Shown: one piece after another, positions 47,990 to 61,685 of the stretch
Layout: every line of letters begins with the position of its first letter
How positions within the stretch are numbered: position 1 is the stretch's first letter
Source: a virus
Taxonomy: Duplodnaviria > Caudoviricetes
DNA: 64,000 nucleotides
IMG/VR virus record: IMGVR_UViG_3300030330_004093
Location: 1 to 64,000 of that record
Strand: one strand, 5' to 3'
Made by a program: the position numbers and the translations under genes
The notes under the pieces: generated by a model
The model's input: only the letters and a program-made list of their open reading frames with translations
Databases searched by the model: none
What the model was told of the DNA's origin: nothing

Positions 47990-48020
47990 TTGACAAAAGT
48001 AAATTATTTTTATATATTTG
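47990..48020 (+). promoter_or_regulatory. Promoter TTGACA-N17-TATATTTG
   Basis: Same layout at 55231-55261 and 57230-57260. Confidence 0.82.
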
Positions 48021-48049: not shown

Positions 48050-49504
48050 ATGACTAAATTGGTGAACGCATTAAGGACTAACGACAAGTTAACTGAAAAC
48101 GGAATGGCAACTAATAGCACTTCTTTAAATAGCTGTGTCGATTTATTTTTCAAGATAGGTGCTTTAAGAGGGCAAGACAAATTGAAAAAAATAAATGTCT
48201 TTAGTAGAGCATATGGTGAAAACCCACTTTTAGCCATGAAATTAATTTTCTGGGCCAGAGACGTTAGAGGTGGTGCTGGTGAAAGAGGTACGTTTAGAGA
48301 GATTATTACTTATATAGCTAATAATAGAACTGAGTCACTTAGAAAAAACTTACACCTTATACCAGAGTACGGTAGATGGGATGATATGCTAACCTTAGTT
48401 GGTACTAAGTTAGAAACTGAAGCTTTATCAGTAATTGCTACTGCCCTTAAAGAAGGTAATGGGTTAGCCGCTAAATGGATGCCTAGTGTTAACGGTAAAA
48501 ATAAAGAAAAAAAGAAGCTTGCTTCTGTTCTTAGAAAATATTTAAAACTTACACCAAAGGCGTATAGAAAGATGTTGTCAGAACTTTCCAACACCGTTGA
48601 GCAATTGATGTGTGCTAAAGATTATGAAAACATAAACTATAGTCACGTACCATCTAAGGCTATGTCTGATTATATGAAAGCCTTCACTAAAAATGATGGT
48701 ATAAGATTCGGTGATTACTTAGATTCCTTGTCGAAAGGTGAAGCCAAGATAAACGCTGGCGCTATTTACCCTTATGACGTAACGAAGAATCTTAATTACG
48801 GTTCTTCAGAAGGTGCTTCAGAACAATGGAAAGCGTTACCAAACTACATGGAAGGTAACAACGAAAGAGTTTTACCAGTGGTAGATACTTCAGGTTCTAT
48901 GGGTATTTCTGCTGGAGGTAGTGCAAAGTTAACTTGTTTAGATGTAGCTTTATCGTTAGGTTTATACATTTCAGAAAGAAATGAGGGTGCATTTAAAGAT
49001 GCGTTCATGACGTTTTCTAGTAGACCAACTTTACAGTATTTAAATGGTGACTTATCTGATAGATTCAACCAACTTACTCGCGCAGATTGGGGTATGAATA
49101 CAGATATAGAAGCTACATTTTTAGAGATTCTAAGTAAAGCTAAGGAAAATAATGTTTCTGAGTCTGAAATGCCAACTATGATTTTGATACTTTCAGATAT
49201 GGAGTTTGATAAAGCTAAAGGTATCACTTGTTACGGTGATACAAATACATGGAACCCAACAGCGCAAACCATGATTGAGGAAAGTTATACTGAAGCTGGA
49301 TATAAGGTTCCAAAGATTGTATATTGGAACATACAGTCTAGAAACGAAAATGTCCCAGTACAATTCGATAAGGATGGTACGGCATTAGTTTCTGGGTTTA
49401 GTCCAGCATTATTAACTGGCTTATTGTCTGGTGAAGATATAACTCCAGAATCAATTATGATGAAGATTATAGGTAGTGAAAGATACGCACCAGTTACGGT
49501 TTAA
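48050..49504 (+). CDS. DUF2828-family protein (TROVE/Ro60-like helical domain + C-terminal vWA)
   Basis: TENG; FWARDVRGGAGER; YGRWDD; AAKWMP; VDTSGSM MIDAS motif; ILSDMEFD; IVYWN; LVSGFSP. Confidence 0.88.
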   Translation: MTKLVNALRTNDKLTENGMATNSTSLNSCVDLFFKIGALRGQDKLKKINVFSRAYGENPLLAMKLIFWARDVRGGAGERGTFREIITYIANNRTESLRKNLHLIPEYGRWDDMLTLVGTKLETEALSVIATALKEGNGLAAKWMPSVNGKNKEKKKLASVLRKYLKLTPKAYRKMLSELSNTVEQLMCAKDYENINYSHVPSKAMSDYMKAFTKNDGIRFGDYLDSLSKGEAKINAGAIYPYDVTKNLNYGSSEGASEQWKALPNYMEGNNERVLPVVDTSGSMGISAGGSAKLTCLDVALSLGLYISERNEGAFKDAFMTFSSRPTLQYLNGDLSDRFNQLTRADWGMNTDIEATFLEILSKAKENNVSESEMPTMILILSDMEFDKAKGITCYGDTNTWNPTAQTMIEESYTEAGYKVPKIVYWNIQSRNENVPVQFDKDGTALVSGFSPALLTGLLSGEDITPESIMMKIIGSERYAPVTV

Positions 49505-49550: not shown

Positions 49551-49585
49551 AAAAAAAGGGTTATATTTGAATATAACCCTTTTTT
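49551..49585. terminator. Rho-independent terminator (possibly bidirectional)
   Basis: AAAAAAGGGTTATAT-ttga-ATATAACCCTTTTTT. Confidence 0.88.
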
Positions 49586-49644
49586 ATTGTTTACACTTTA
49601 AATAATTTTTCTTATATTAGAGTATAATTAAATAACAGAATTAT

Positions 49645-51967: not shown

Positions 51968-53011
51968 ATGCCAAAAGATTACTACGAAATATTAGAAGTA
52001 GATAAAAATGCTTCAGATTCAGAAATCAAAAAATCATATAGAAAGTTGTCCAAAAAACATCATCCAGATGTCGGTGGTAACGAAGATAAGTTCAAGGAAA
52101 TAGCTGAAGCTTACGAAATTTTATCAGATTCTGAGAAAAAATCTAACTACGACAGATATGGCCATGCTGGTAATAAAATGCATATGGGTGGTAATCCATT
52201 TGGGGGTAATCCATTTGAGGGAGGTTTTAATATGAATGATTTCATGAATAATTTTCATGGAGGTGTTCGAAGACAAAAGAGAGGCAACGATATTTCATTT
52301 AATATAAAAATAACTCTAGAGGAAGTATTTAATGGGGTAACTAAAAAATTTAAATACAAAAGAACTTCAGCATGTAAAGATTGTAATGGTGAAGGGGGTA
52401 CAGAAAAAGAAGTTTGTAGCTCTTGTAATGGTAGAGGGTTTAACGTGGTGCTACAAACAACACCTATGGGCAGTTTTCAAGCACAACAAACTTGCCAAAG
52501 ATGTCAAGGGGAAGGTAGAGTTGTTAAAAACATTTGTAAAACATGCAACGGTAATGGTGTTAGTTACAAAGAAGAAACCGTTAGCGTTGAATTACCAAAA
52601 GGTATTAGCGAGAACGAAACCCTACAATACACAGGGATGGGTAACGCTGTAAAGGGTGGGTTACCAGGTTCTCTATTCATAAAGGTGTCTATAACAAACC
52701 ATCATGACTTTGAAAGAAGTGGTAATGATTTAAAATATAATTTAAAATTAAATTACTCACAACTAGTGTTAGGTGATAAAGTAAAGGTACCTACCATTGA
52801 TGGTAGTGATATAATGATTGATATACCTAAATATAGTGATGTTGGTGATAACTTAAGGGTAGCTAAAAAGGGGTTATATAAAATGAATAGTGACGAGAGG
52901 GGTAATATGATAATAATTTTAGATATAGATATACCTAAGAATATTGATGGTGAAGAGTTAGAATTAATTGAAAAATTAAAAAAATTAAAGAAGGGTGTTG
53001 GCGATAATTAA
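51968..53011 (+). CDS. dnaJ: Chaperone DnaJ (class A)
   Basis: DYYEIL; HPD; G/F region; four CxxCxGxG motifs; C-terminal domain. Confidence 0.96.
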
Positions 53012-53068
53012 ATTTAGTTGTATATTTGTCAAGAATTAAATAATTAATAACAATTAAAATTTTAAATT

Positions 53069-53500
53069 ATGTCAGAGTACTACGAACCAAACGAGGACAC
53101 ATTATCTGTATTTAACGCAACAATTTCAAAAAGTTCATTACCATCAACTCTAAAGATTGCTATTAGAAGTAACAATAGAGAGAAAGACTTATATAGAATT
53201 GACAAGACAAGTCAGTTAATGAGGTCTGAAACTAAAAAAGAAATTTACATAGTGGTTAATGAATTAATATTTGAACAACTAGAAGAACAACACCAGTCAA
53301 TTGTTGCAGAAGAAGCTATAGCTTCAATTGTATACGATTTAGAAAAGGACAAGATAACACTCAAGCGTGGTGATGTCGGTATCACTAAAAGAGGTGCTTT
53401 CACTGGTATTTTAAAGAAATATGGTGCAGAAACTTATGAAGTGGTTCAAGAAAGCGTTAAAACGCTTTATAATGCTAAAAAAGAAGAAGCTGAAGTATGA
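53069..53500 (+). CDS. Phage putative-metallopeptidase-like protein lacking HExxH
   Basis: IVVNELIFEQL...AEEAIAS...DV...FTGILKKYG. Confidence 0.5.
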   Translation: MSEYYEPNEDTLSVFNATISKSSLPSTLKIAIRSNNREKDLYRIDKTSQLMRSETKKEIYIVVNELIFEQLEEQHQSIVAEEAIASIVYDLEKDKITLKRGDVGITKRGAFTGILKKYGAETYEVVQESVKTLYNAKKEEAEV

Positions 53501-53754
53501 TGACACCAGAAGAAGTTGCAGAATACAACGAAGAGGCTTTAATAGCTGATGGATTAGACAAAGCGATAATAGGGGTTGCCGAGAGAATAAATCTTGGTCC
53601 CGTTGCCGCATATAGTGTCGAAAAGATATACGAAATACTAATGACTCGCGATGGTATGACGTATGAAGAAGCCATTGAGTTTTTTGAATTCAATATAAAG
53701 GGGTCATGGATGGGAGAATACACACCTGTCTACATTTACACAAACGAAGATTAA
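53497..53754 (+). CDS. Conserved phage hypothetical protein
   Basis: ADGLDKAIIG...MTYEEAIEFFEFNIKGSWMGEYTP. Confidence 0.75.
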   Translation: MMTPEEVAEYNEEALIADGLDKAIIGVAERINLGPVAAYSVEKIYEILMTRDGMTYEEAIEFFEFNIKGSWMGEYTPVYIYTNED

Positions 53755-53756
53755 AT

Positions 53757-53975
53757 ATGAAAGAACAACTGTACAAATTATTGAAAAGTAAAGCTGAATC
53801 TGAAAAAGAAGAAGCTTTAACAACATTAAAATTATTAGGTCAATATCCAGCTGGTATTGGCGACCACTCTACTGGTGATTTTTACGAAAACGCTGAAGAA
53901 GCATTACAAAAATTAGTTGATTCGGATGACAAGTTAGAAGCATTGGAAAAATATAAAAAAACTATTTTTAATTAA
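53757..53975 (+). CDS. Conserved phage helical protein (PAGIGDH motif)
   Basis: ATG at 53757 after the previous stop. Confidence 0.7.
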   Translation: MKEQLYKLLKSKAESEKEEALTTLKLLGQYPAGIGDHSTGDFYENAEEALQKLVDSDDKLEALEKYKKTIFN

Positions 53976-53978
53976 AAT

Positions 53979-54716
53979 ATGGAGAACTACATAAATACAA
54001 ATATGGACTTTTATAGTGAATTTAAAAATTACGCAATGAACCATATGGGGATTAGCGGAATGCAGTTTCACTATTGGGATAAACTACAAGCTTCAATTTA
54101 CGATAATGTAAATGTATTAACTGGAACACAACCTAGCAGTTCAATGACACCCTATATCCTTGAAGAAAGGGAATTAAGAGTGACTCAAATGGACATCTTC
54201 TCAAGACAGATGATGGATAGAATACTTTGGGTAGTTGGACCAGTTAATGACCAGATGTCAACGGTTGTATGTGCTCAGTTAATGTTCTTAGACAACTTAG
54301 AGGTGTCTGACATTAAGATGTACGTAGATAGTCCAGGAGGTAGCGTTAAAAGTGGTCTTAGTATGGTAGACGTAATGAACTATGTCGAATCTGATATTTT
54401 AACGGTTAACACTGGTATGGCAGCATCGATGGGTTCTATCTTATTAGGTAATGGTACCAAGGGTAAAAGATTTGCTTTACCGAACTCAAGAGTTATGCTT
54501 CATCAAGTTAGTAGTGGTGCTAGAGGTCATGTTGAAGATATGAAGATTAGTATTGCTGAAGCGGAGAAATATAATCAAAACTTATTTGGTATGCTTGCTG
54601 AATATACTGGTAAGGATATCAAGACAGTACTTAAGGATTGTAATAGAGATAATTGGCTTAACGCTAAAGAAGCTTTAGAATATGGTATCATAGATGATAT
54701 TATAACTAAAAAATAA
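53979..54716 (+). CDS. clpP: ATP-dependent Clp protease proteolytic subunit
   Basis: DSPGGSV; GMAASMG (Ser); RVMLHQ (His); RDNWL (Asp); Bacteroidota-like N-terminal extension EFKNYAMNHMGI. Confidence 0.96.
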   Translation: MENYINTNMDFYSEFKNYAMNHMGISGMQFHYWDKLQASIYDNVNVLTGTQPSSSMTPYILEERELRVTQMDIFSRQMMDRILWVVGPVNDQMSTVVCAQLMFLDNLEVSDIKMYVDSPGGSVKSGLSMVDVMNYVESDILTVNTGMAASMGSILLGNGTKGKRFALPNSRVMLHQVSSGARGHVEDMKISIAEAEKYNQNLFGMLAEYTGKDIKTVLKDCNRDNWLNAKEALEYGIIDDIITKK

Positions 54717-55191
54717 TAATTGGTTGCCCCATATAACAATTTAAATACATAAATAGATATGGAAACAATTATTTTAATTTCAGTTTTATCAACTCTAGGT
54801 GTAGTTGCATTAGTTACGGCTATTGTGGTTATGTTTACGAAGTTGAACAAAAAGGTTGGGAACGAAATGTTTAACAACGAAATGACAGGTTTAATCAATT
54901 TAATTGATGAAAACCAAAGGTTAAATAACAAAAGGGGTGAGAAAAATGATAATGACTTATCCCGAAACATCGATGAAATATATCGAGCAATAACTAAAGT
55001 TGAATCTAAATTAGATTCAAGGACTGATAAGCTTCACGACCTTATTAAGTTAACGGAAAAAGAACTTGTAAATCAGTTAGATTACAGGTTAAGTGAAATG
55101 GAAAGACTTATTTTCAAGGTCCAAGAAAAGGTCAATAAGGTTAATGAGGAATTATTAACTAATTAATAATAAACGGGGCAACTAATTATTA
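54714..55191. repeat. 17-bp inverted repeats (16/17) bracketing ORF 54759-55166
   Basis: TAATAATTGGTTGCCCC (54714-54730) and GGGGCAACTAATTATTA (55175-55191). Confidence 0.85.
54759..55166 (+). CDS. N-terminal TM + coiled-coil protein
   Basis: Hydrophobic aa 3-26; KVESKLDSRTDKL. Confidence 0.72.
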   Translation: METIILISVLSTLGVVALVTAIVVMFTKLNKKVGNEMFNNEMTGLINLIDENQRLNNKRGEKNDNDLSRNIDEIYRAITKVESKLDSRTDKLHDLIKLTEKELVNQLDYRLSEMERLIFKVQEKVNKVNEELLTN

Positions 55192-55220
55192 ATGGGGACT
55201 TAACGGTTCCCATTTTTTTT
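55191..55220 (+). terminator. Rho-independent terminator
   Basis: AATGGGGAC-ttaacg-GTTCCCATT followed by a T-tract. Confidence 0.8.
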
Positions 55221-55230
55221 ATTAAAAAAG

Positions 55231-55261
55231 TTGACAACTTAGTAAAGTTTTAGTATATTTG
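55231..55261 (+). promoter_or_regulatory. tmRNA promoter TTGACA-N17-TATATTTG
   Basis: Canonical spacing, ~30 nt upstream of the tmRNA 5' end. Confidence 0.82.
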
Positions 55262-55291
55262 TGAATATATATATAGTAGTTCTTTTTTTAT

Positions 55292-55655
55292 GGGGTATAA
55301 TGATATTGATTGCTTAACGTAATGGTTAACAAGCATGCAGTGTTAGATGGAAACACTAGAATAACCTATCAAGACTTTTAAACGACAACGAATTTAACGT
55401 TGACAAAAACTTCCTTGAAACTTCTACAGTAGAAGTATTTGAAGGAGAGGTAGCATTCGCCTAACAGAAGATGCACGTTCCTTCGGGGACACCAGGTTTA
55501 TCTGATTGTACTTAACAATCGGTTGAAGGTTGTAAGTTACCGCTCTGCTAATTTGGGAACTTAATATTTTTGTTCTTTTAGAAAAAACGAACTAAGCATG
55601 TAGAAAGTTTATTGTTAGTAAGTAAGAAGTGGGGTCATGCCCACATACTCCACCA
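55292..55655 (+). ncRNA. ssrA: tmRNA (transfer-messenger RNA)
   Basis: GGGGTAT/ATACTCC acceptor stem with G3-U, A discriminator and encoded CCA; T-stem GTGGG/CCCAC; tag frame 55384-55464 ending VAFA-stop; 364 nt between a promoter and a terminator. Confidence 0.9.
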
Positions 55656-55669
55656 TACTTTTTTGCCTT

Positions 55670-55703
55670 AAAACCCATCTCTTAAAAAAAGATGGGTTTT
55701 TTT
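55670..55703 (+). terminator. Rho-independent terminator after tmRNA
   Basis: AAAACCCATCT...AGATGGGTTTT followed by a T-tract. Confidence 0.88.
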
Positions 55704-55769
55704 ATTAAAAGTGTTTACATTTAAATTAATAAGTGTATATTTGTATCATTATAAATTAAAAATTAGATT

Positions 55770-56216
55770 ATGGGAGTAATTACAGAGAACAGCAAAGTAA
55801 CGGTACATTATATTGGAAAATTATCTGATGGTCAAGTATTTGACGCATCAATGCCTGTAGAGGGTGACGAAAACTTCACAGGTAGGGAACCAATTGATGT
55901 TGAATTGGGTAAAAAAATGGTTATACCTGGATTTGAGAAAGCATTACAAGGTATGCAAGAAGGGGAAACTAAAACCGTTACAATACCTTCATCAGAGGCA
56001 TACGGTGAAGTAAGTTCACAACATTTACATGAGATTGAAAAAGATAGGGTACCAGATACAGTTAAGGAAGGTGATGTTTTACAAACAGAAAATGCTGGTC
56101 AAGTTGCCAAGGTTATTGTTAAAGAAGTTAAAGAAAATACTGTTATTTTAGATGCAAATCATCCTTTAGCGGGTAAAGATTTGACTTTTGAATTAAAAGT
56201 TGTTAGTGTGTCTTAA
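55770..56216 (+). CDS. FKBP-type peptidyl-prolyl isomerase (SlyD/SlpA-like, with IF domain, no His tail)
   Basis: VTVHYIGKL.DG.VFD; VIPGFEKAL; EAYG; LDANHPLAGKDLTF. Confidence 0.95.
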   Translation: MGVITENSKVTVHYIGKLSDGQVFDASMPVEGDENFTGREPIDVELGKKMVIPGFEKALQGMQEGETKTVTIPSSEAYGEVSSQHLHEIEKDRVPDTVKEGDVLQTENAGQVAKVIVKEVKENTVILDANHPLAGKDLTFELKVVSVS

Positions 56217-56254
56217 GTAATGATTATTATTCATTAATTATTTGTTTTTTTACT

Positions 56255-56280
56255 AAACCCTCTTTATGAGGGTTTTTTTT
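56255..56280 (+). terminator. Rho-independent terminator
   Basis: AAACCCTC-tttat-GAGGGTTT followed by a T-tract. Confidence 0.85.
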
Positions 56281-56304
56281 GTATTTATATATAAACGGAT
56301 AATT

Positions 56305-56532
56305 ATGAAAGAATTTTTAAAGGGTATCTTTATAGAAGATAGTAAAGATGGTAAAGCGTCATCTAAAAAGGTTATGGGTATATTAGCTGGAATACTAGCA
56401 TTTGCAGCTTTTGTGGTTGATGGGTTTCACTTTTATGAAATCGATTCAGGAATGTTTGATTCAATGCTTATTTTTTCTGGAACAATGCTCGGAGCATCAA
56501 TAGTCAAGGGATTTGCAGGTGGAAATAAATAA
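56305..56532 (+). CDS. Small two-TM protein (holin-like, SSKK motif)
   Basis: TATTTAT at 56282-56288; two hydrophobic helices. Confidence 0.55.
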   Translation: MKEFLKGIFIEDSKDGKASSKKVMGILAGILAFAAFVVDGFHFYEIDSGMFDSMLIFSGTMLGASIVKGFAGGNK

Positions 56533-56553
56533 TCCAATTAAAACTTTAAATAA

Positions 56554-56579
56554 AACGGGTTGGTTTACTCTAACCCGTT
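56554..56579. terminator. Hairpin between convergent genes (probable bidirectional terminator)
   Basis: AACGGGTTGG-tttact-CTAACCCGTT. Confidence 0.7.
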
Positions 56580-56580
56580 A

Positions 56581-56673
56581 TTATTTACTAGTAGTGCTAT
56601 TGTTACCATTATCGCTATTAGTACTGTTATTAGCGTTAGTAGGTTTTGGTTTTTGTTTACATCCACATCCCAT
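56581..56673 (-). CDS. 30-aa microprotein MGCGCKQKPKPTNANNSTNSDNGNNSTTSK (not in the ORF track)
   Basis: My translation; MGCxCK start shared with ORF 3744; upstream minus-strand ATATTTATA; ends at the hairpin. Confidence 0.65.
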   Translation of the reverse strand: MGCGCKQKPKPTNANNSTNSDNGNNSTTSK

Positions 56674-56801
56674 AGTATTAAGTTTTAAATATTCTTATTG
56701 TTTTATTTATAAATATGTTTCTAAAATAAAATAATGTATATTATTTGGTTTTTAATAAAAAAACATATATATTTGACTATACTTATATAATAAAGGATAG
56801 T

Positions 56802-56996
56802 ATGATAAAAGTAAATGTTAAAAACGGCAATATTGAAAGTGCTTTAAAATTTTTAAAGAGAAAAGTTAGAAACACAAAACAAACTAACGAATTAAGGGAA
56901 AGAAAAACCTACACAAAACCCTCAGAAGAAAGAAGGGAATCAAAAAAGAAATCAATTTATATCGAACAGAAAAGAATAAAGGATGAAGATATTTAA
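56802..56996 (+). CDS. rpsU: Ribosomal protein bS21
   Basis: IKVNVKNGNIESALKFLKRKV...ELRERKTYTKPSEERR; TATATTTG at 56768-56775. Confidence 0.9.
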   Translation: MIKVNVKNGNIESALKFLKRKVRNTKQTNELRERKTYTKPSEERRESKKKSIYIEQKRIKDEDI

Positions 56997-57240
56997 AAAA
57001 AATAAAAAATCAGTTACTCTATTGGATGAAAAATGGAATGTAATTGATGATAATGTCGATTTCAATAATCTACCCAGAATACATGAATTAATCTTTTTAC
57101 CAAAAGAAAATAAATATTATAGAGTAGTTAACATAATTTATAACATGGTAAAACCCATTGAAACATACGTAGTTATAGAAATTTATGGGGATGATTATAA
57201 ATTAATTGAAAAAAATAATGACAAGGGGGTTGACACGTAA
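56983..57240 (+). CDS. Hypothetical protein
   Basis: Overlaps the rpsU end; LLDEKW...PRIHELI...YYRVVNI. Confidence 0.65.
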   Translation: MKIFKKNKKSVTLLDEKWNVIDDNVDFNNLPRIHELIFLPKENKYYRVVNIIYNMVKPIETYVVIEIYGDDYKLIEKNNDKGVDT

Positions 57241-57260
57241 CAAAATTATATGTATATTTG
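57230..57260 (+). promoter_or_regulatory. Promoter TTGACA-N17-TATATTTG driving a non-coding unit
   Basis: No ORF between this promoter and the terminator at 57421-57449. Confidence 0.82.
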
Positions 57261-57272
57261 TATTATAGTATT

Positions 57273-57394
57273 AAAGAAAGGATACAGCAGTCCAAAAACT
57301 AAAATCGGAAAACAACTCCTTTCTGTTACTTCTTATAAAGAAAAGATACAGCAAATTACACACACACAAAGCAAAATGTAAAAATTCTTTTCTG
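57273..57394 (+). ncRNA. Candidate structured ncRNA: two tandem AAAGAAARGA-TACAGCA...TCYTTTCTG units
   Basis: Stems AGAAAGGA/TCCTTTCT (57275-57282 with 57317-57324) and AGAAAAGA/TCTTTTCT (57339-57346 with 57386-57393), with a compensatory G-C to A-U change. Confidence 0.7.
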
Positions 57395-57420
57395 AAACTA
57401 GTTTTTAACGTAGTATAATT

Positions 57421-57449
57421 AATCCCCAGTGATAAGCTGGGGATTTTTA
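57421..57449 (+). terminator. Rho-independent terminator
   Basis: AATCCCCAG-tgataag-CTGGGGATT followed by a T-tract. Confidence 0.88.
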
Positions 57450-57464
57450 TTTAAAAAATTAAAT

Positions 57465-57986
57465 ATGAATAAAGAAAAAAAGTTTCCATCACTATTAATA
57501 ATAGGTAATAAAAGACACGGAAAGGATAGCCTAGCTGAAATACTAGGTGATAAGTTTGGTCTTAAATTCAAATCATCATCACAAGCTTGTGCGGATATTT
57601 TCATTTACGATGAATTAAAAACAAAGTATGGGTATAAGACACCAGAAGAATGTTTTGAAGATAGAGTTAACCATAGAAGGGAGTGGTACGAAATGATTAG
57701 AGATTACAACAAAGACGATAGAAGTAAATTAGCTAAGGAAGTTTTGAAAACCACCGATTGTTATGTTGGTATGAGGGATAGAGAAGAAATAGAAGAATGT
57801 TTAAAAAATAAACTATTTGATTTAGTGATATGGGTTGATGCTTCAGATAGATTACCACTTGAAGATAAGGAATCTTTTAATATAGATAAGTCATGTGCTC
57901 ATATTATTATAGATAATAATGGCACATATGATGAATTTGTCAATAAGAGTATATTATTAGGTAAATTACTAACTGGGACTATCTAA
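57465..57986 (+). CDS. P-loop kinase, deoxynucleoside monophosphate kinase-like
   Basis: LLIIGNKRHGKD; VGMRD..E; IWVDAS.R; IIDNNGT. Confidence 0.75.
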   Translation: MNKEKKFPSLLIIGNKRHGKDSLAEILGDKFGLKFKSSSQACADIFIYDELKTKYGYKTPEECFEDRVNHRREWYEMIRDYNKDDRSKLAKEVLKTTDCYVGMRDREEIEECLKNKLFDLVIWVDASDRLPLEDKESFNIDKSCAHIIIDNNGTYDEFVNKSILLGKLLTGTI

Positions 57987-58016
57987 TATTAAACTATATA
58001 ACTTAATTATTAAAAT

Positions 58017-58048
58017 AACCCTGTAATTGATTACGGGGTTTGTTTTTT
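58017..58048 (+). terminator. Probable terminator
   Basis: AACCCTGTAAT-tg-ATTACGGGGTT followed by a T-rich tail. Confidence 0.72.
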
Positions 58049-58088
58049 ATTTAAATTTTATTATATTTATATACAAAGGTAATTCACT

Positions 58089-58559
58089 ATGAAAATGTTA
58101 GATGTAATAAAGAAAGAATTGGAAGGTAAAAAGTTGCCACCAAATGCAAATAAAATATTTGATATAATTAAAAAGTGTGATGAATTATCACTTAATGTTT
58201 CAAAATTATACACCAAGTTAAGTTTTGAAACAATAGGCGCTATTATACTAGGTGAGACTGATATATCTAAGTACGATTCAATGGTTGAAACTCTAGATGA
58301 TTACTCTACTCAGTATGATAGGGAGTTAAGCTCTGAAATGAAATCGGTTGAGGATAATTATGATATATATGAAGATTTTTTTCACGTTATAGATAACAAC
58401 ACAAGTGATATTATTGCTTGGAGAAAAATAAGTTCTTTATCTGATTTAACAAGAAAGTTAGTAGACCTAACATCAGAAGACCATGATAAATTCATGGGAC
58501 AAGCGAATAAAGATACCGAAATAAGTAACTTTAAAAGGTTTTCATTAGGAAATGGATAA
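58089..58559 (+). CDS. Hypothetical helical protein
   Basis: TATTTAT at 58064-58070. Confidence 0.6.
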   Translation: MKMLDVIKKELEGKKLPPNANKIFDIIKKCDELSLNVSKLYTKLSFETIGAIILGETDISKYDSMVETLDDYSTQYDRELSSEMKSVEDNYDIYEDFFHVIDNNTSDIIAWRKISSLSDLTRKLVDLTSEDHDKFMGQANKDTEISNFKRFSLGNG

Positions 58560-59109
58560 ATCACAAATCAAAATAGCTTTAAGAGAGGGTTTAGAAGAAA
58601 CCATAACCAAAGTATCAATATTTGACTTTGACGGAACCCTTGTGGATTCACCAATACCAGACGGTAGAGATGCTGAGACAAATAACCCAACATCCAAAGA
58701 ATACAAAGAAAATACTGGGCAAGACTGGCCATTCAAAGGTTGGTGGGGTAGAGGCGAAAGCTTAGATATGGAAGCGTTTAATATACCACAAATAAGTTCA
58801 ACAATAGCGGACTATAATGAAGAAAGGTCAAAACCAAATACTTTGGTTGTTATGATGACTGGTAGAATTCCTAAGATTTCTGAACATGTTGAAAAAATAT
58901 TAAATAAATATAACCTTAAATTTGATGATTACATTTATAACAACAAGGGGGCTACATTAGATTTTAAAATTAAAGTACTAGAAGATTACCTTACAATATA
59001 CCCAAATTTAAGGGAAATTGAAATGTGGGAAGACAGGGTTGCGCACACAAAAGCATTCAGAGAATGGGGTGCGAATAAAAATATTGAAATGATTGTTAAT
59101 CAAGTATGA
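58552..59109 (+). CDS. HAD-superfamily phosphatase (Swiss-Army-knife RNA-repair-like), with IKIALREGL leader
   Basis: IFDFDGTLVDSP; GWW; MMTGR; K; MWEDR..H. Confidence 0.82.
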   Translation: MDKSQIKIALREGLEETITKVSIFDFDGTLVDSPIPDGRDAETNNPTSKEYKENTGQDWPFKGWWGRGESLDMEAFNIPQISSTIADYNEERSKPNTLVVMMTGRIPKISEHVEKILNKYNLKFDDYIYNNKGATLDFKIKVLEDYLTIYPNLREIEMWEDRVAHTKAFREWGANKNIEMIVNQV

Positions 59110-61685
59110 AACATTTAATTAAAAAATTATTAAATGAAGAATCTAGAAAAATAACATTACTAGAGGAATTATCTTTATTAATAGAAAAAGAAATATCTGT
59201 AGGTCCAGCATTAAAGAAAAAACTTGGTAATATAAACAAGCCATTTGCTGACAAATTACTAAAATTTTTAACTTCAGATAAAATATCCGATAAGGTCACG
59301 ATAGATACTATAGACTACAATTTAGATGATGACAAAACCATAACTGGTTATTTTAAAGATAGAGAAGGTAAAAGAAAAGCTAGGAAGTTTAAGGTAGGTA
59401 AACTGTTAAAATACTTAGGTGTTAATCCTTCGGAATATAAGGGATACGAAATAGAGGAATTAATATCTTATCTGAAACAAGGTAGTCTAGAGGACTTTAA
59501 GGTGGTTGATGGGGAAGATATATTAAAAGCGTATCATTGTGATAATTATGACGAAGGGGAAACCATGGGTTCTTGTATGCGATATGAAGCTGCACAAACT
59601 TATTTAAAGATGTATGTAGATAACCCAGACGATGTTAAATGCTTAGTCTTACTTAACCCAAACAATAATAAAGTTAGAGGTAGAGCCTTATTATGGCATA
59701 TGGATAACGACAGATGGTTTATGGATAGGGTATACATGATAAATAGTCAATACAGGAACCTATTCAATTTATATAAAGAAAAGAATAATTTTAGTATGAT
59801 ACCTAAAACTGTAACACTAACAAACGGTGGGGAATATGATAAATATCCATACATGGATACTTTTGAATTCTATAGCCCATCCAATGGTGAATTAAGTACA
59901 GAAGATTACCATGATGACTCTATTATGTTAACAGATACGCAAGGTGGTTACTCTGAAGGTGGTGCTTATATTGAGTATGGTGAACACGAAGGAGAAACTA
60001 TCGATGAGGACGATGCTGTTTTTTTATCATACAGAAAACCAAATGAAAATGTGGAAGGATATGCACACGAGGATGACGTAGAAACAATAGATGGAACCGC
60101 ATATCTAAAAGATGACTGTATAGAGTTATACAATGGTGACTTTGCATTTAAATATGACGACTATAGTTATCCTGTTGAATTAACTCACGGCGCATATGAA
60201 GGTGAATATGCTAAATTAGATGACACTGTACAACTAGAAGACGGACAATATGGTAGTGATTCTTATATTACAACAGATGACGACTATATAGAATTAGATA
60301 ATAGTATATACGATACACCTTATGCTTTTACTGATGATACAACACAAACTTATAGTGATAAGATAATACTAAGAGACGATGCTATAACACTTTACGAACC
60401 ACATTACGGCGACTTCAATTATGCTCATCCAGATGAAGCAACTGAAGTAGATATAAAAGACCATGGTTCGGCATGGGTTCTAGATGATGATTTAGATGAG
60501 TTTGAAGAAAATGGTCTTATTGAAGAAAAATTAGAAGCTATTATGGAAAATAAATCTTTAATCAAAAAATTACTAAGAGAAGGTCTCGATAAAGTTAATT
60601 CGTTTGAATCTCTATTAGGTGAAGTAACAAGTAAACTTGATTTCTCATCATTTAAGATGAATGATACACTTAATCCTGAGATATGGGTTGATGAAAATAC
60701 TATTAAACCAGAAATACAAGAAAACCTTATAAAAATAGCTGAAGATTATTATAATAATCTAGAATTAGACATACCAATATTAGATATAACACTTACAGGT
60801 AGTTTAGCCAATTATAATTGGTCAAAATACTCTGATGTTGATTTACATATAATATTTGATGCAAATGAACTTGGGGATAATAAGGACATGGTTAAGGATT
60901 TACTAGATGTAAAGACTAGAGCATGGAATCTTAAGCACAATATAACAGTAAAGGGGTTTGATGTGGAGCTATATCTTCAACCAGAAGACCAACCACATCA
61001 TTCAACAGGTGTTTATTCTCTAATGAACAAAGAATGGGTTGACAAACCAGAAATAGTAAAACCAGAGATTGACAAAGAAACTATAACTAAGAAATACAAT
61101 AACATCATATCAATAGTTAAAGATATCGAAGACGATAAGGATAATCAAAACGTTATTGAAAAGATAGAACAACTAAAGGATAAGATTAAAGACATGAGAA
61201 AGTCTGGTCTTGAAGATAAGGGAGAATATAGTTCCGAAAACATAACCTTTAAATTACTTAGAAGAAATGATATAATGCAAAAACTAGATGATTTATTAGT
61301 TAATGCTTATGACGATGAACACACTATAGTTGAGGTATCTAAGTTCCCAATAGCAGACCCACCAATGTACGGCGACTCTAATTACAAGGATAGAAACGGT
61401 ATTATTGTGGACATGAAACCACAAGACTATTTATATTTGGTACCACATCTAGAACTAGATGATGATTCAGAGGACAATATAGAAGATTTAGCTAGTATGA
61501 TGAGAGATGGTGTTGAAATTGACCCACCTACATTATATTTAGACGGTAATAGGGTGGACAATCATGACGGTAGGCATAGAGTTTACGCCGCTATGAGACT
61601 AGGATTAAATAGAATACCTGTCCTTTTCTTAGACAAAAACAATAATAAACCCCAATTAAAGGGTCTCAAAAAACAACTTGGATGA
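59106..61685 (+). CDS. Multidomain fusion: GSCMRY/RALLW/YPYMDT domain, acidic repeats, Pol-beta-type nucleotidyltransferase, ParB/Srx-like domain
   Basis: LTGSLANYNWSKYSDVDLHI...DVELY; PPTL...HDGRHRVYAA...IPV; internal second leader MENKSLIKKLLREGL at 60543. Confidence 0.8.
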   Translation: MKHLIKKLLNEESRKITLLEELSLLIEKEISVGPALKKKLGNINKPFADKLLKFLTSDKISDKVTIDTIDYNLDDDKTITGYFKDREGKRKARKFKVGKLLKYLGVNPSEYKGYEIEELISYLKQGSLEDFKVVDGEDILKAYHCDNYDEGETMGSCMRYEAAQTYLKMYVDNPDDVKCLVLLNPNNNKVRGRALLWHMDNDRWFMDRVYMINSQYRNLFNLYKEKNNFSMIPKTVTLTNGGEYDKYPYMDTFEFYSPSNGELSTEDYHDDSIMLTDTQGGYSEGGAYIEYGEHEGETIDEDDAVFLSYRKPNENVEGYAHEDDVETIDGTAYLKDDCIELYNGDFAFKYDDYSYPVELTHGAYEGEYAKLDDTVQLEDGQYGSDSYITTDDDYIELDNSIYDTPYAFTDDTTQTYSDKIILRDDAITLYEPHYGDFNYAHPDEATEVDIKDHGSAWVLDDDLDEFEENGLIEEKLEAIMENKSLIKKLLREGLDKVNSFESLLGEVTSKLDFSSFKMNDTLNPEIWVDENTIKPEIQENLIKIAEDYYNNLELDIPILDITLTGSLANYNWSKYSDVDLHIIFDANELGDNKDMVKDLLDVKTRAWNLKHNITVKGFDVELYLQPEDQPHHSTGVYSLMNKEWVDKPEIVKPEIDKETITKKYNNIISIVKDIEDDKDNQNVIEKIEQLKDKIKDMRKSGLEDKGEYSSENITFKLLRRNDIMQKLDDLLVNAYDDEHTIVEVSKFPIADPPMYGDSNYKDRNGIIVDMKPQDYLYLVPHLELDDDSEDNIEDLASMMRDGVEIDPPTLYLDGNRVDNHDGRHRVYAAMRLGLNRIPVLFLDKNNNKPQLKGLKKQLG

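Follow-up and report, generated by a model that had tools for sequence, protein, structure and literature searches.

We examined the first 64 kb (64,000 nucleotides, hereafter "the window") of the 103-kb IMG/VR phage record IMGVR_UViG_3300030330_004093, which represents a fragment of a jumbo phage, given that CheckV rates its completeness at 29%; the phage is a marine giant phage with a G+C content of ~31% and nearly all of its genes on the + strand. An earlier note, made from the letters alone, had claimed a promoter, two hairpin units and a terminator at 57230-57449, and all of these are indeed present on the + strand. We propose that this stretch encodes, in tandem, two small RNAs of a family that we call "CAGCAA-handle" RNAs, and that these RNAs dock onto a Ro60-like protein of the DUF2828/DUF7788 type; judging from sequence and predicted structure, we would give the two proposals jointly, with the transcription, binding and function that they imply, a probability of about 0.7. 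The gene for the protein lies on the same strand, with the RNA units at +7.8 kb from it. The features concerned are these:

47990-48020, + strand: promoter of the DUF2828 gene, of the TTGACA-N17-TATATTTG type (pattern scan)
48050-49504, + strand: DUF2828/DUF7788 protein gene, 484 amino acids, the proposed partner (Pfam E = 8e-48 and 8e-35)
49552-49586, + strand: terminator hairpin after the DUF2828 gene (read from the sequence)
57230-57260, + strand: promoter of the RNA gene, TTGACA, a 17-nt spacer and TATATTTG (TATATT(TG)) (promoter scan, 11/12 matches; kept in all relatives)
57275-57325, + strand: unit 1, 51 nt (sequence, fold and match to the covariance model R1)
57339-57394, + strand: unit 2, 56 nt (sequence, fold and match to R1)
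57421-57449, + strand: intrinsic terminator closing the RNA gene, a 10-bp hairpin (57421-57445) with 5 G-C pairs and then a T run, nearly invariant in relatives

In unit 1 the closing stem joins AGAAAGGA (57275-57282) to TCCTTTCT (57317-57324) with 8/8 positions paired, and TACAGCA follows at 57283-57289 as part of the handle UACAGCAG (57283-57290), ahead of an A/C-rich interior; G57325 is left unpaired. Unit 2 repeats this build with AGAAAAGA (57339-57346) and TCTTTTCT (57386-57393), again 8/8 paired, TACAGCA at 57347-57353, the handle UACAGCAA at 57347-57354, a CA-rich interior and an unpaired G57394. Both units end 3' in ...UCUG, their interiors (26-31 nt) are minimal A/C-rich loops with a helix of 3-5 bp at most, and the minimum-energy fold contains both closing stems (z = -3.75 against shuffles). 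The inner stem that had been described is weak and is not kept in register. A 43-codon ATG frame (57250-57381) crosses the units, and we regard the stretch as not coding because this frame begins within the -10 box and because the loop indels of relatives are not multiples of three; a stand-alone non-coding unit, as had been suggested, would fit the promoter and the terminator, both of which are conserved in relatives.

Homologous loci were found with the downstream kinase as an anchor and then with a gapped DNA pattern; in close relatives the units likewise precede the kinase homologue. The whole promoter-to-terminator unit is kept in eight distinct two-unit relatives and in two one-unit relatives, among which the promoter, the stems, CAGCA and the terminator are nearly invariant and the interiors vary by substitutions and by indels not divisible by three; one relative (L188) carries a compensatory change from GGA/TCC to GGG/CCC in the unit 1 stem. 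This conservation of the whole unit, together with the model scores given below, is more than chance would produce. The one-unit relatives look like deletions between both repeats. The closest IMG/VR relative (L002:2833-2985, IMGVR_UViG_3300025276_000029), whose kinase is 88% identical, has one hybrid unit in which the 5' strand of unit 1 faces the 3' strand of unit 2; its stem has decayed and its model score is down to 23 bits, the outcome expected if selection keeps the stem. At the same locus a local hairpin, CTAGTTT-CAG-AAACTAG, with a T run replaces the broken terminal stem, and this looks like a decaying copy. Scans of IMG/VR with a 15-mer and a 16-mer (AGAAARGATACAGCA and TAGTATTAAAGAAAGG) returned nearly all chance matches, the sole real relative being L002/L165, and a loose gapped pattern gave mostly chance among the matches listed; a tighter pattern worked, and since it forces the stem sequence it was never used alone for covariation.

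The covariance model R1 was built from 41 seed units, including both units of the window. Unit 2 scores 59.3 bits (E = 2e-10) and unit 1 scores 54.9 bits (E = 2e-9), and these two are the only strong matches to R1 in the 103-kb record. In plan, members of the family have ends joined by a 7-bp stem, whose 5' strand is followed at once by an unpaired N-U-(U/A)-CAGC(A)A, then a variable A-rich interior, and CU-G at the 3' end. CAGC is invariant in 41/41 aligned units; of the TACAGCA that had been called invariant, the CAGC(A)A core holds across the family, and the preceding TA varies (TT, TA, CC). A generic scan, in which CAGC, CU-G and a stem of 7 bp or more were the sole requirements, recovered units that differ in their stems (AGAATCA/TGATTCT, AGGTTAG/CTAACCT, AGATTAG/CTAATCT, AGTGTTC/GAACACT, AGAGTAC/GTACTCT) and yet all share the longer motif UUCAGCAA(U/A) and a 5' UAA context, neither of which the scan had demanded.

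In the set of 41 curated units, 93% of the cells of the 7-bp stem are paired, compared with 73% after shuffling (0/500 shuffles as high), with double changes at 5-7 of the 7 stem pairs across the unit sets and with G-U pairs tolerated. As pairing had been a selection criterion for these units, their covariation is partly circular, and the count was redone on units fetched via the protein. In these 68 units, found through the neighbouring protein gene alone, 98.2% of cells are paired and double changes occur at 7/7 pairs, with a score of 0.744 versus 0.193 and with 32-47% pairing in slid controls; the alignment is model-fitted and hence leans towards structure, the margin being large. The covarying hairpins of the earlier note are borne out by both sets, with the stem pairing in 93-98% of cells. 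Complete jumbo genomes carry 2-4 units each and one 19%-complete fragment carries five, usually as a tandem pair or flanking transfer RNAs (tRNAs); with so few units per genome, and two in this record, we are dealing with a low-copy gene and not with a dispersed repeat. A search of Rfam gave no match above threshold, as had been predicted, and its Y_RNA and YrlA models gave none for the units either at gathering score or at E <= 10.

Read as DNA, the units form inverted repeats of 8 bp that recur with a period of 64 bp, and one could ask whether they act as DNA, for example as protein-binding inverted repeats or an origin-like site, or are a chance repeat. We hold this to be barely credible, given that the conserved motif is strand-specific, that the stem tolerates G-U pairs, that a promoter and a terminator frame the units, and that 83/83 model matches beside DUF2828 genes lie on the coding strand.

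The protein encoded at 48050-49504 is predicted to fold like Ro60, that is, as a ring of helical repeats with a C-terminal vWA domain. Its AlphaFold2 model (predicted local distance difference test 89.4, predicted template modelling score 0.88) consists of helical repeats in its N-terminal part and of an alpha/beta domain at the C-terminus, and the top 13 PDB matches of this model in Foldseek are all Ro60/TROVE structures, matched over their full length at E = 3e-10 to 7e-6. They come from Xenopus, human, Deinococcus and Thermus phage phiLo (1YVP, 2I91, 2NVO, 9L5Y and 9NEN among them), with template modelling scores of 0.54-0.61 for most and 0.37 for 2NVO. The residues of the vWA metal ion-dependent adhesion site motif DxSxS (D279, S281, S283, T351, D383) are invariant in the family. 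The Pfam TROVE domain gave no match to the protein, for which Pfam returns DUF2828 and DUF7788 only, and a sequence-level PDB search likewise gave no match, identity to the solved Ro60 structures being 11-17%; the relationship is thus invisible to sequence searches alone and is shown by fold comparison. The DUF2828 family comprises 6,720 clusters at 50% identity, and a protein atlas yielded nothing further than the DUF2828 clusters. The family is represented in 702 cultured phage records, those of Felix O1-, P100- and KVP40-type phages among them; in GenBank some of these homologues are already annotated as "Ro-like RNA binding protein" or "RNA-binding protein." In one record (G010:C1:10245-11904, L459) the DUF2828 gene matches in two open frames of 366 and 194 amino acids and may be split or interrupted.

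The RNA units accompany this gene well beyond the window. Around DUF2828 homologues of 45-67% identity we collected 80 IMG/VR loci, each reaching up to 10 kb to either side of the gene, and in these R1 found 68 units, 68/68 on the strand of the gene. Units occur in 41/80 loci and lie within 500 nt of the gene in 27 (16 downstream, 11 upstream); there is a single match at 0.5-2 kb upstream, a single match at 2-5 kb downstream, and a second cluster at 5.5-9.8 kb downstream in the closest clade (13 related loci), an arrangement that the window shares with its +7.8 kb. On 834 kb of control viral DNA R1 gave 0 matches, even though much of that DNA had been fetched for the 15-mer AGAAARGATACAGCA. 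A further 15 matches, all on the strand of the gene and most of them directly upstream, were found in 80 bacterial and archaeal assembly contigs with DUF2828 genes, which include Chloroflexota, Izemoplasmatales, Endomicrobium and a Woesearchaeota bin and some of which may be phage-derived. An unrelated 476-kb phage with Shine-Dalgarno sites (G006) has two tandem units and a terminator immediately before its DUF2828 gene. The same association is found in cultured phages: Listeria phage LMTA-94 (NC_047872.1, L623:5662-5812) has two unannotated units 190-340 nt upstream of its DUF2828 gene, and in Escherichia phage allfine (Felixounavirus, MN850633.1, L621:7750-8381) tRNAs follow closely downstream of the DUF2828 gene, and the gaps that separate them contain unannotated units, of which two reach E < 0.05 while a third match is weaker (E = 0.31).

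Presence and absence agree as well. All eight records that have units and enough sequence (G000, G001, G002, G003, G006, G007, G009 and G010) have the DUF2828 domain PF11443, while G004, which is 93% complete and has 33 tRNAs, has neither units nor a DUF2828 protein; in G001 the units lie >230 kb from the tRNA clusters and 8.4 kb from the DUF2828 gene. This pattern speaks for units that go with the protein gene rather than with the tRNAs. It also bears on a different explanation, namely that the hairpins are processing or stability modules of tRNA and other non-coding transcripts (ribonuclease punctuation, or protective 5' and 3' hairpins) whose link to DUF2828 comes only from nearby tRNA clusters. 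Many relatives do have units right beside tRNAs: they border tRNA-Gln and tRNA-Met in L319 (spacers of 3-5 nt), lead tRNA operons in L191 and L289, stand just before a tRNA in L194 and L458, and lie between tRNAs in allfine. We nevertheless think this explanation unlikely, since to G004 and G001 may be added that the transcription units of this window and of G006 contain no tRNA, and that a bulge conserved in its very sequence points to a binding partner of its own more than to a generic hairpin.

The promoters point the same way. Across the 103-kb record the pattern TTGACA-N(15-19)-TATATTTG occurs at three sites only, all with N17, which stand before the DUF2828 gene, the gene for transfer-messenger RNA (tmRNA) and the two-unit RNA gene; 0.01 such full promoters are expected by chance in the 64-kb window. 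Because the bare TATATTTG element is far commoner (36 occurrences on the + strand), the full form marks a small special class, and as the DUF2828 gene has its own terminator it is a unit of its own. Given their shared promoter type, the RNA and protein genes therefore look like one small promoter class. The TROVE/vWA-like protein, which the earlier note had picked as the best partner candidate in the window, is thus supported by the Ro60-like fold, close same-strand adjacency in unrelated contigs, the match of presence and absence, and the common promoter type, and it seems that the CAGCAA-handle RNAs and the Ro60-like DUF2828 protein are probably partners, as far as binding and function can be read from comparisons of this kind.

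The order of promoter, two hairpins, terminator and gene seen here, and the units and terminator ahead of DUF2828 in G006, could also be those of a cis-acting leader (an attenuator or antiterminator, or an autoregulatory protein site) that governs terminator read-through into the kinase and RNA-repair genes here and into DUF2828 elsewhere; units stand directly upstream of DUF2828 in ~11 viral and ~10 genomic loci. Such a leader is hard to reconcile with units placed shortly after the gene, as in 16 loci, or with those that sit between tRNAs or at operon ends. Further, the gene downstream of the units differs between relatives, two of which (L192 and L193) keep the kinase without any unit, and no conserved alternative pairing exists between the units and the terminator, so that we consider a leader very unlikely. 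An antitoxin-like role, which had been among the functions offered for the units, does not fit either: type III (ToxI-like) antitoxins are near-identical tandem repeats with a terminator and then an endoribonuclease toxin gene, whereas here the unit interiors differ, the downstream gene encodes a P-loop kinase and not a toxin, and that kinase occurs without units in the two relatives just named. A guide-like role, cleavage of the transcript into monomers and a switch of the CAG to pairing with the CUG, which the earlier note also raised, would be speculative.

The comparison that suggests itself is with Ro60 (Rsr/TROVE2) and its RNAs, which include the vertebrate Y RNAs, Yrn1 of Deinococcus and YrlA/YrlB of Salmonella and phages (PMC4201824). 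The Y RNA has a bulged helix close to its paired ends, and Ro60 reads mainly the 5' strand of that helix, with the motifs GGUCCGA and GNCGAAN0-1G (PMC4201824); the Ro60 of Thermus phage phiLo binds two Y-like RNAs, Yrl1 and Yrl2, that are encoded beside its gene (PMC12135203), and a survey of jumbo phages by Iyer et al. placed TROVE proteins in phage RNA-repair sets (PMC7824862). Thus the kind of system proposed here, a Ro60-like protein with Y-like RNAs in a phage, is already known, and the Ro-likeness of the protein is noted both in GenBank annotations and in a preprint. The present case resembles it in several ways: the protein is by prediction a ring of helical repeats with a vWA domain, the units, like Y RNAs, have paired ends that form a stem and a conserved motif that lies on or beside its 5' strand, the RNA genes lie beside or near the protein gene and often two in tandem as in phiLo, and the setting is one of tRNA and RNA-repair genes as in the TROVE sets of phages. 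It differs in that the partner belongs to DUF2828/DUF7788 in Pfam and not to TROVE, in that the units of the window are about half the size of Y RNAs (51-56 nt versus 80-130 nt), and in that, unlike YrlA, they lack tRNA-like T and D arms.

Several observations weigh against the coupling of these RNAs to the protein. No unit was found within 10 kb in 39/80 DUF2828 loci, which may reflect limited sensitivity of the model or short contigs, and in Vibrio phage KVP40 and Cronobacter phage S13 R1 gave no match in the vicinity of the DUF2828 gene. In the window itself RNA and protein genes are 7.8 kb apart and not adjacent; genes in these phages are mostly co-oriented, so that strand agreement alone weighs little; and DUF2828 genes often adjoin tRNA arrays, a possible confounder. 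Lastly, the Ro60-binding motifs GGUCCGA and GNCGAAN0-1G are absent, with no CGAA anywhere in 57262-57420, the motif here being CAGCAA.

Taking both sides together, we favour a model in which the stem and the CAGCAA bulge would form the docking site for the Ro60-like ring protein, onto which the RNAs would load as Y RNAs do onto Ro60. The variable interior would then be the working end, which may act as a gate for the protein or as its link to other RNAs or enzymes. From clade to clade the interiors are entirely different, and some relatives hold tRNA-like parts there (in L003 a T-arm). The interiors could instead be all that matters: single-stranded, A/C-rich and fast-evolving beside a fixed handle, they might act by base pairing or as decoys (a small regulatory RNA, a sponge for a host factor), with the handle as a scaffold and no Ro60-like partner needed. 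To this we attach little probability, since interiors wholly different from clade to clade and in part tRNA-like do not suit it, and since it leaves the coupling to DUF2828 unexplained.

The surroundings of the RNA gene suggest where a docked particle of this sort might work. They include:

51968-53011: DnaJ gene
53979-54716: ClpP gene
55231-55261, + strand: tmRNA promoter, the third TTGACA-N17-TATATTTG site (promoter scan)
55292-55655, + strand: tmRNA gene of the phage (Rfam RF00023, 54.2 bits)
55770-56216: FKBP isomerase gene
56745-56996: ribosomal protein S21 gene
57465-57986, + strand: P-loop kinase gene, first of the RNA-repair-type cluster downstream of the RNA gene (Pfam, PHROGs)
58552-59109: gene with a HAD_SAK_1 domain ("Swiss Army Knife RNA repair" HAD domain; Pfam, PHROGs)
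59106-61685: nucleotidyltransferase gene, 859 amino acids (Pfam, PHROGs)

Because the neighbourhood holds S21, tmRNA, kinase, HAD and nucleotidyltransferase genes, the likely field would be RNA surveillance or repair, or else counter-defence against host RNA-targeting systems, during infection; in cultured phages the neighbourhood of DUF2828 has RtcB, an RNA ligase and a CCA-adding enzyme. DUF2828/DUF7788 is among the larger protein families of unexplained function, and a defined RNA partner would make of it a testable ribonucleoprotein and would carry the principle of Ro60 and Y RNA over to a second lineage of proteins, one that uses a different RNA code. It would also identify small-RNA genes hidden in the "tRNA arrays" of well-used model phages (Felixounavirus, Listeria P100-type). 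In the literature we found no description of these RNAs or of their pairing with DUF2828, the name DUF2828 appearing only in unrelated plant and tardigrade-genome work.

One precedent for the build of the units comes from an unexpected quarter. Among Rfam models, RF01414 (the Dictyostelium Class I RNA, consensus GaUcuC-CUUACAGCAAU...AAAAA...GagAuC-UG) alone aligns with a unit over its whole length; against it unit 2 scores 14.8 bits, well below the gathering score of 41.5; unit 1 gave no match to it, and 14 other unit-bearing loci gave none at E <= 1. Class I RNAs are 42-65 nt long, with a short end-joining stem, an 11-nt motif beside the 5' strand, a variable remainder and a 3' CUGU whose C pairs with a conserved 5' G; they are reported as unique to Dictyostelia and are bound by the RNA recognition motif protein Rnp1A/CIBP (Kjellin et al., 2021; PMC7919456). 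Their 11-nt motif conserves U3, C6, C9, A10 and A11, and a Dictyostelium upstream sequence element (DUSE) lies ~60 nt upstream as promoter (PMC7919456). The handle RNAs resemble them in length, in the end-joining stem, in a motif, (CC)UUACAGCAA, directly after the 5' strand, in the variable A-rich remainder and in the 3' CUG(U); the length, the stem, C6, C9, A10 and the CUG are found in both units of the window, A11 in unit 2 only, and U3 is unmatched. They differ in lying in a phage genome behind the bacterial-type promoter TTGACA-17-TATATTTG and not the eukaryotic DUSE. We would call this a likeness and not membership, the score falling short of the Rfam threshold, and either homology or convergence could account for it. 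The "new family" of the earlier note is therefore new in that no Rfam family takes in the units, and less new in that RF01414 shows the same build. Since Class I RNAs have been reported from Dictyostelia only, the likeness raises the question of their origin and function. It is conceivable, although we are doubtful, that the CAGCAA-handle RNAs and the dictyostelid Class I RNAs are RNAs of a single type that docks onto DUF2828-type Ro60-like proteins. In that case an RNA partner would be at hand for the DUF2828 family, with its >6,700 clusters at 50% identity, the Class I RNAs, which have long lacked an explanation, would become candidates for a function like that of Y RNAs, and the particle might also be a counter-defence device of phages.

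A counter-defence role has been described for one Ro60-like phage protein. A preprint (PhageMaP) reports that gp130 of the Felixounavirus Bas63 is structurally similar to Ro60, is encoded directly upstream of a stretch of tRNAs and counters the ppl defence in E. coli; the preprint names no partner RNA, and its authors speculated that Y RNAs are among the neighbouring "tRNA genes" (doi 10.1101/2024.10.10.617714). The DUF2828 homologue of allfine (39.5% identity to the protein of the window) lies in exactly that place, so that it is like gp130 by position, gp130 itself being likened by description only, and the ppl phenotype may not carry over to a marine phage.

The tRNA cluster of phage T4 encodes species 1 and 2 (rnaC and rnaD), small stable RNAs that are not tRNAs and whose role is unexplained; we know of no Ro60-like partner for them in T4. 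The units resemble them, by description only, as small non-tRNA RNAs located with phage tRNA genes. In Cronobacter phage S13 (KC954775.1, L622:7896-8138) two oversized "tRNAs" of 121 and 113 nt, one of them annotated tRNA-OTHER, lie just downstream of the DUF2828 gene, and these might be handle RNAs with tRNA-like cargo, or a diverged form.

Several other known RNA types were considered for the units and rejected. ARAGORN finds no tRNA in the region, in agreement with the earlier note, and a T-loop misfits at position 58. A box C/D kink-turn would need GA where the 5' side has AA, a hammerhead is not compatible with CUGAUA lacking G8 and A9, and a "theta" ribozyme like that of hepatitis delta virus lacks both a P3 beside the 3' strand of P1 and a partner for P2. 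There is no reverse transcriptase for a retron msr, for which the unit is also too short; there is no repeated GGA for a CsrA/Hfq sponge; and an rrn-type boxA leader was dropped on inspection of the sequence. The units are likewise not solitary or arrayed repeats of the clustered regularly interspaced short palindromic repeat (CRISPR) type, as had been stated: by eye they bear no likeness to the 36-nt repeat (CTGTTAATACC...ATACAAC) of the array at 1-663. That array consists of at least nine repeats of ~36 nt (CTGTTAATACCTATATTTTGTATGGTATATACAAC) with spacers of ~30 nt, decays rightward and has no cas gene in view.

Apart from the RNA gene, the phage has its own translation and proteostasis set at 51968-56996 (DnaJ, ClpP, tmRNA, FKBP isomerase and S21), and an 85-amino-acid open reading frame, for which a search for relatives found none, lies between the S21 gene and the two-unit RNA gene. 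A DNA similarity search of cultured phages with 55000-59000 gave as its sole match 62 nt within the FKBP gene.

Related phages carry further small elements beside their units. In L355 (L355:1-160), L384, L328 and L201, tRNA-shaped genes that ARAGORN does not call stand a few bases ahead of the units; they show a T-arm, an acceptor-like stem of 7 bp and, capped by the conserved loop ACCACCU, an "anticodon" stem of 8 bp. In eight loci (L355, L387, L401, L389, L384, L412, L328 and L201) a third small element, GATTTCAGCGAATC, is conserved 50-90 nt downstream of the units; it follows GATAGCTGA, which is conserved as well, and repeats the UCAGC core in a different frame. Two loci (L194:4571-4643 and L196:4617-4691) have a tRNA with the anticodon CUA, an amber suppressor that ARAGORN labels "Pyl," and one of them also has a release-factor-like gene (L196:399-962, PCRF/RF-1), which together hint at stop-codon recoding in this phage group.

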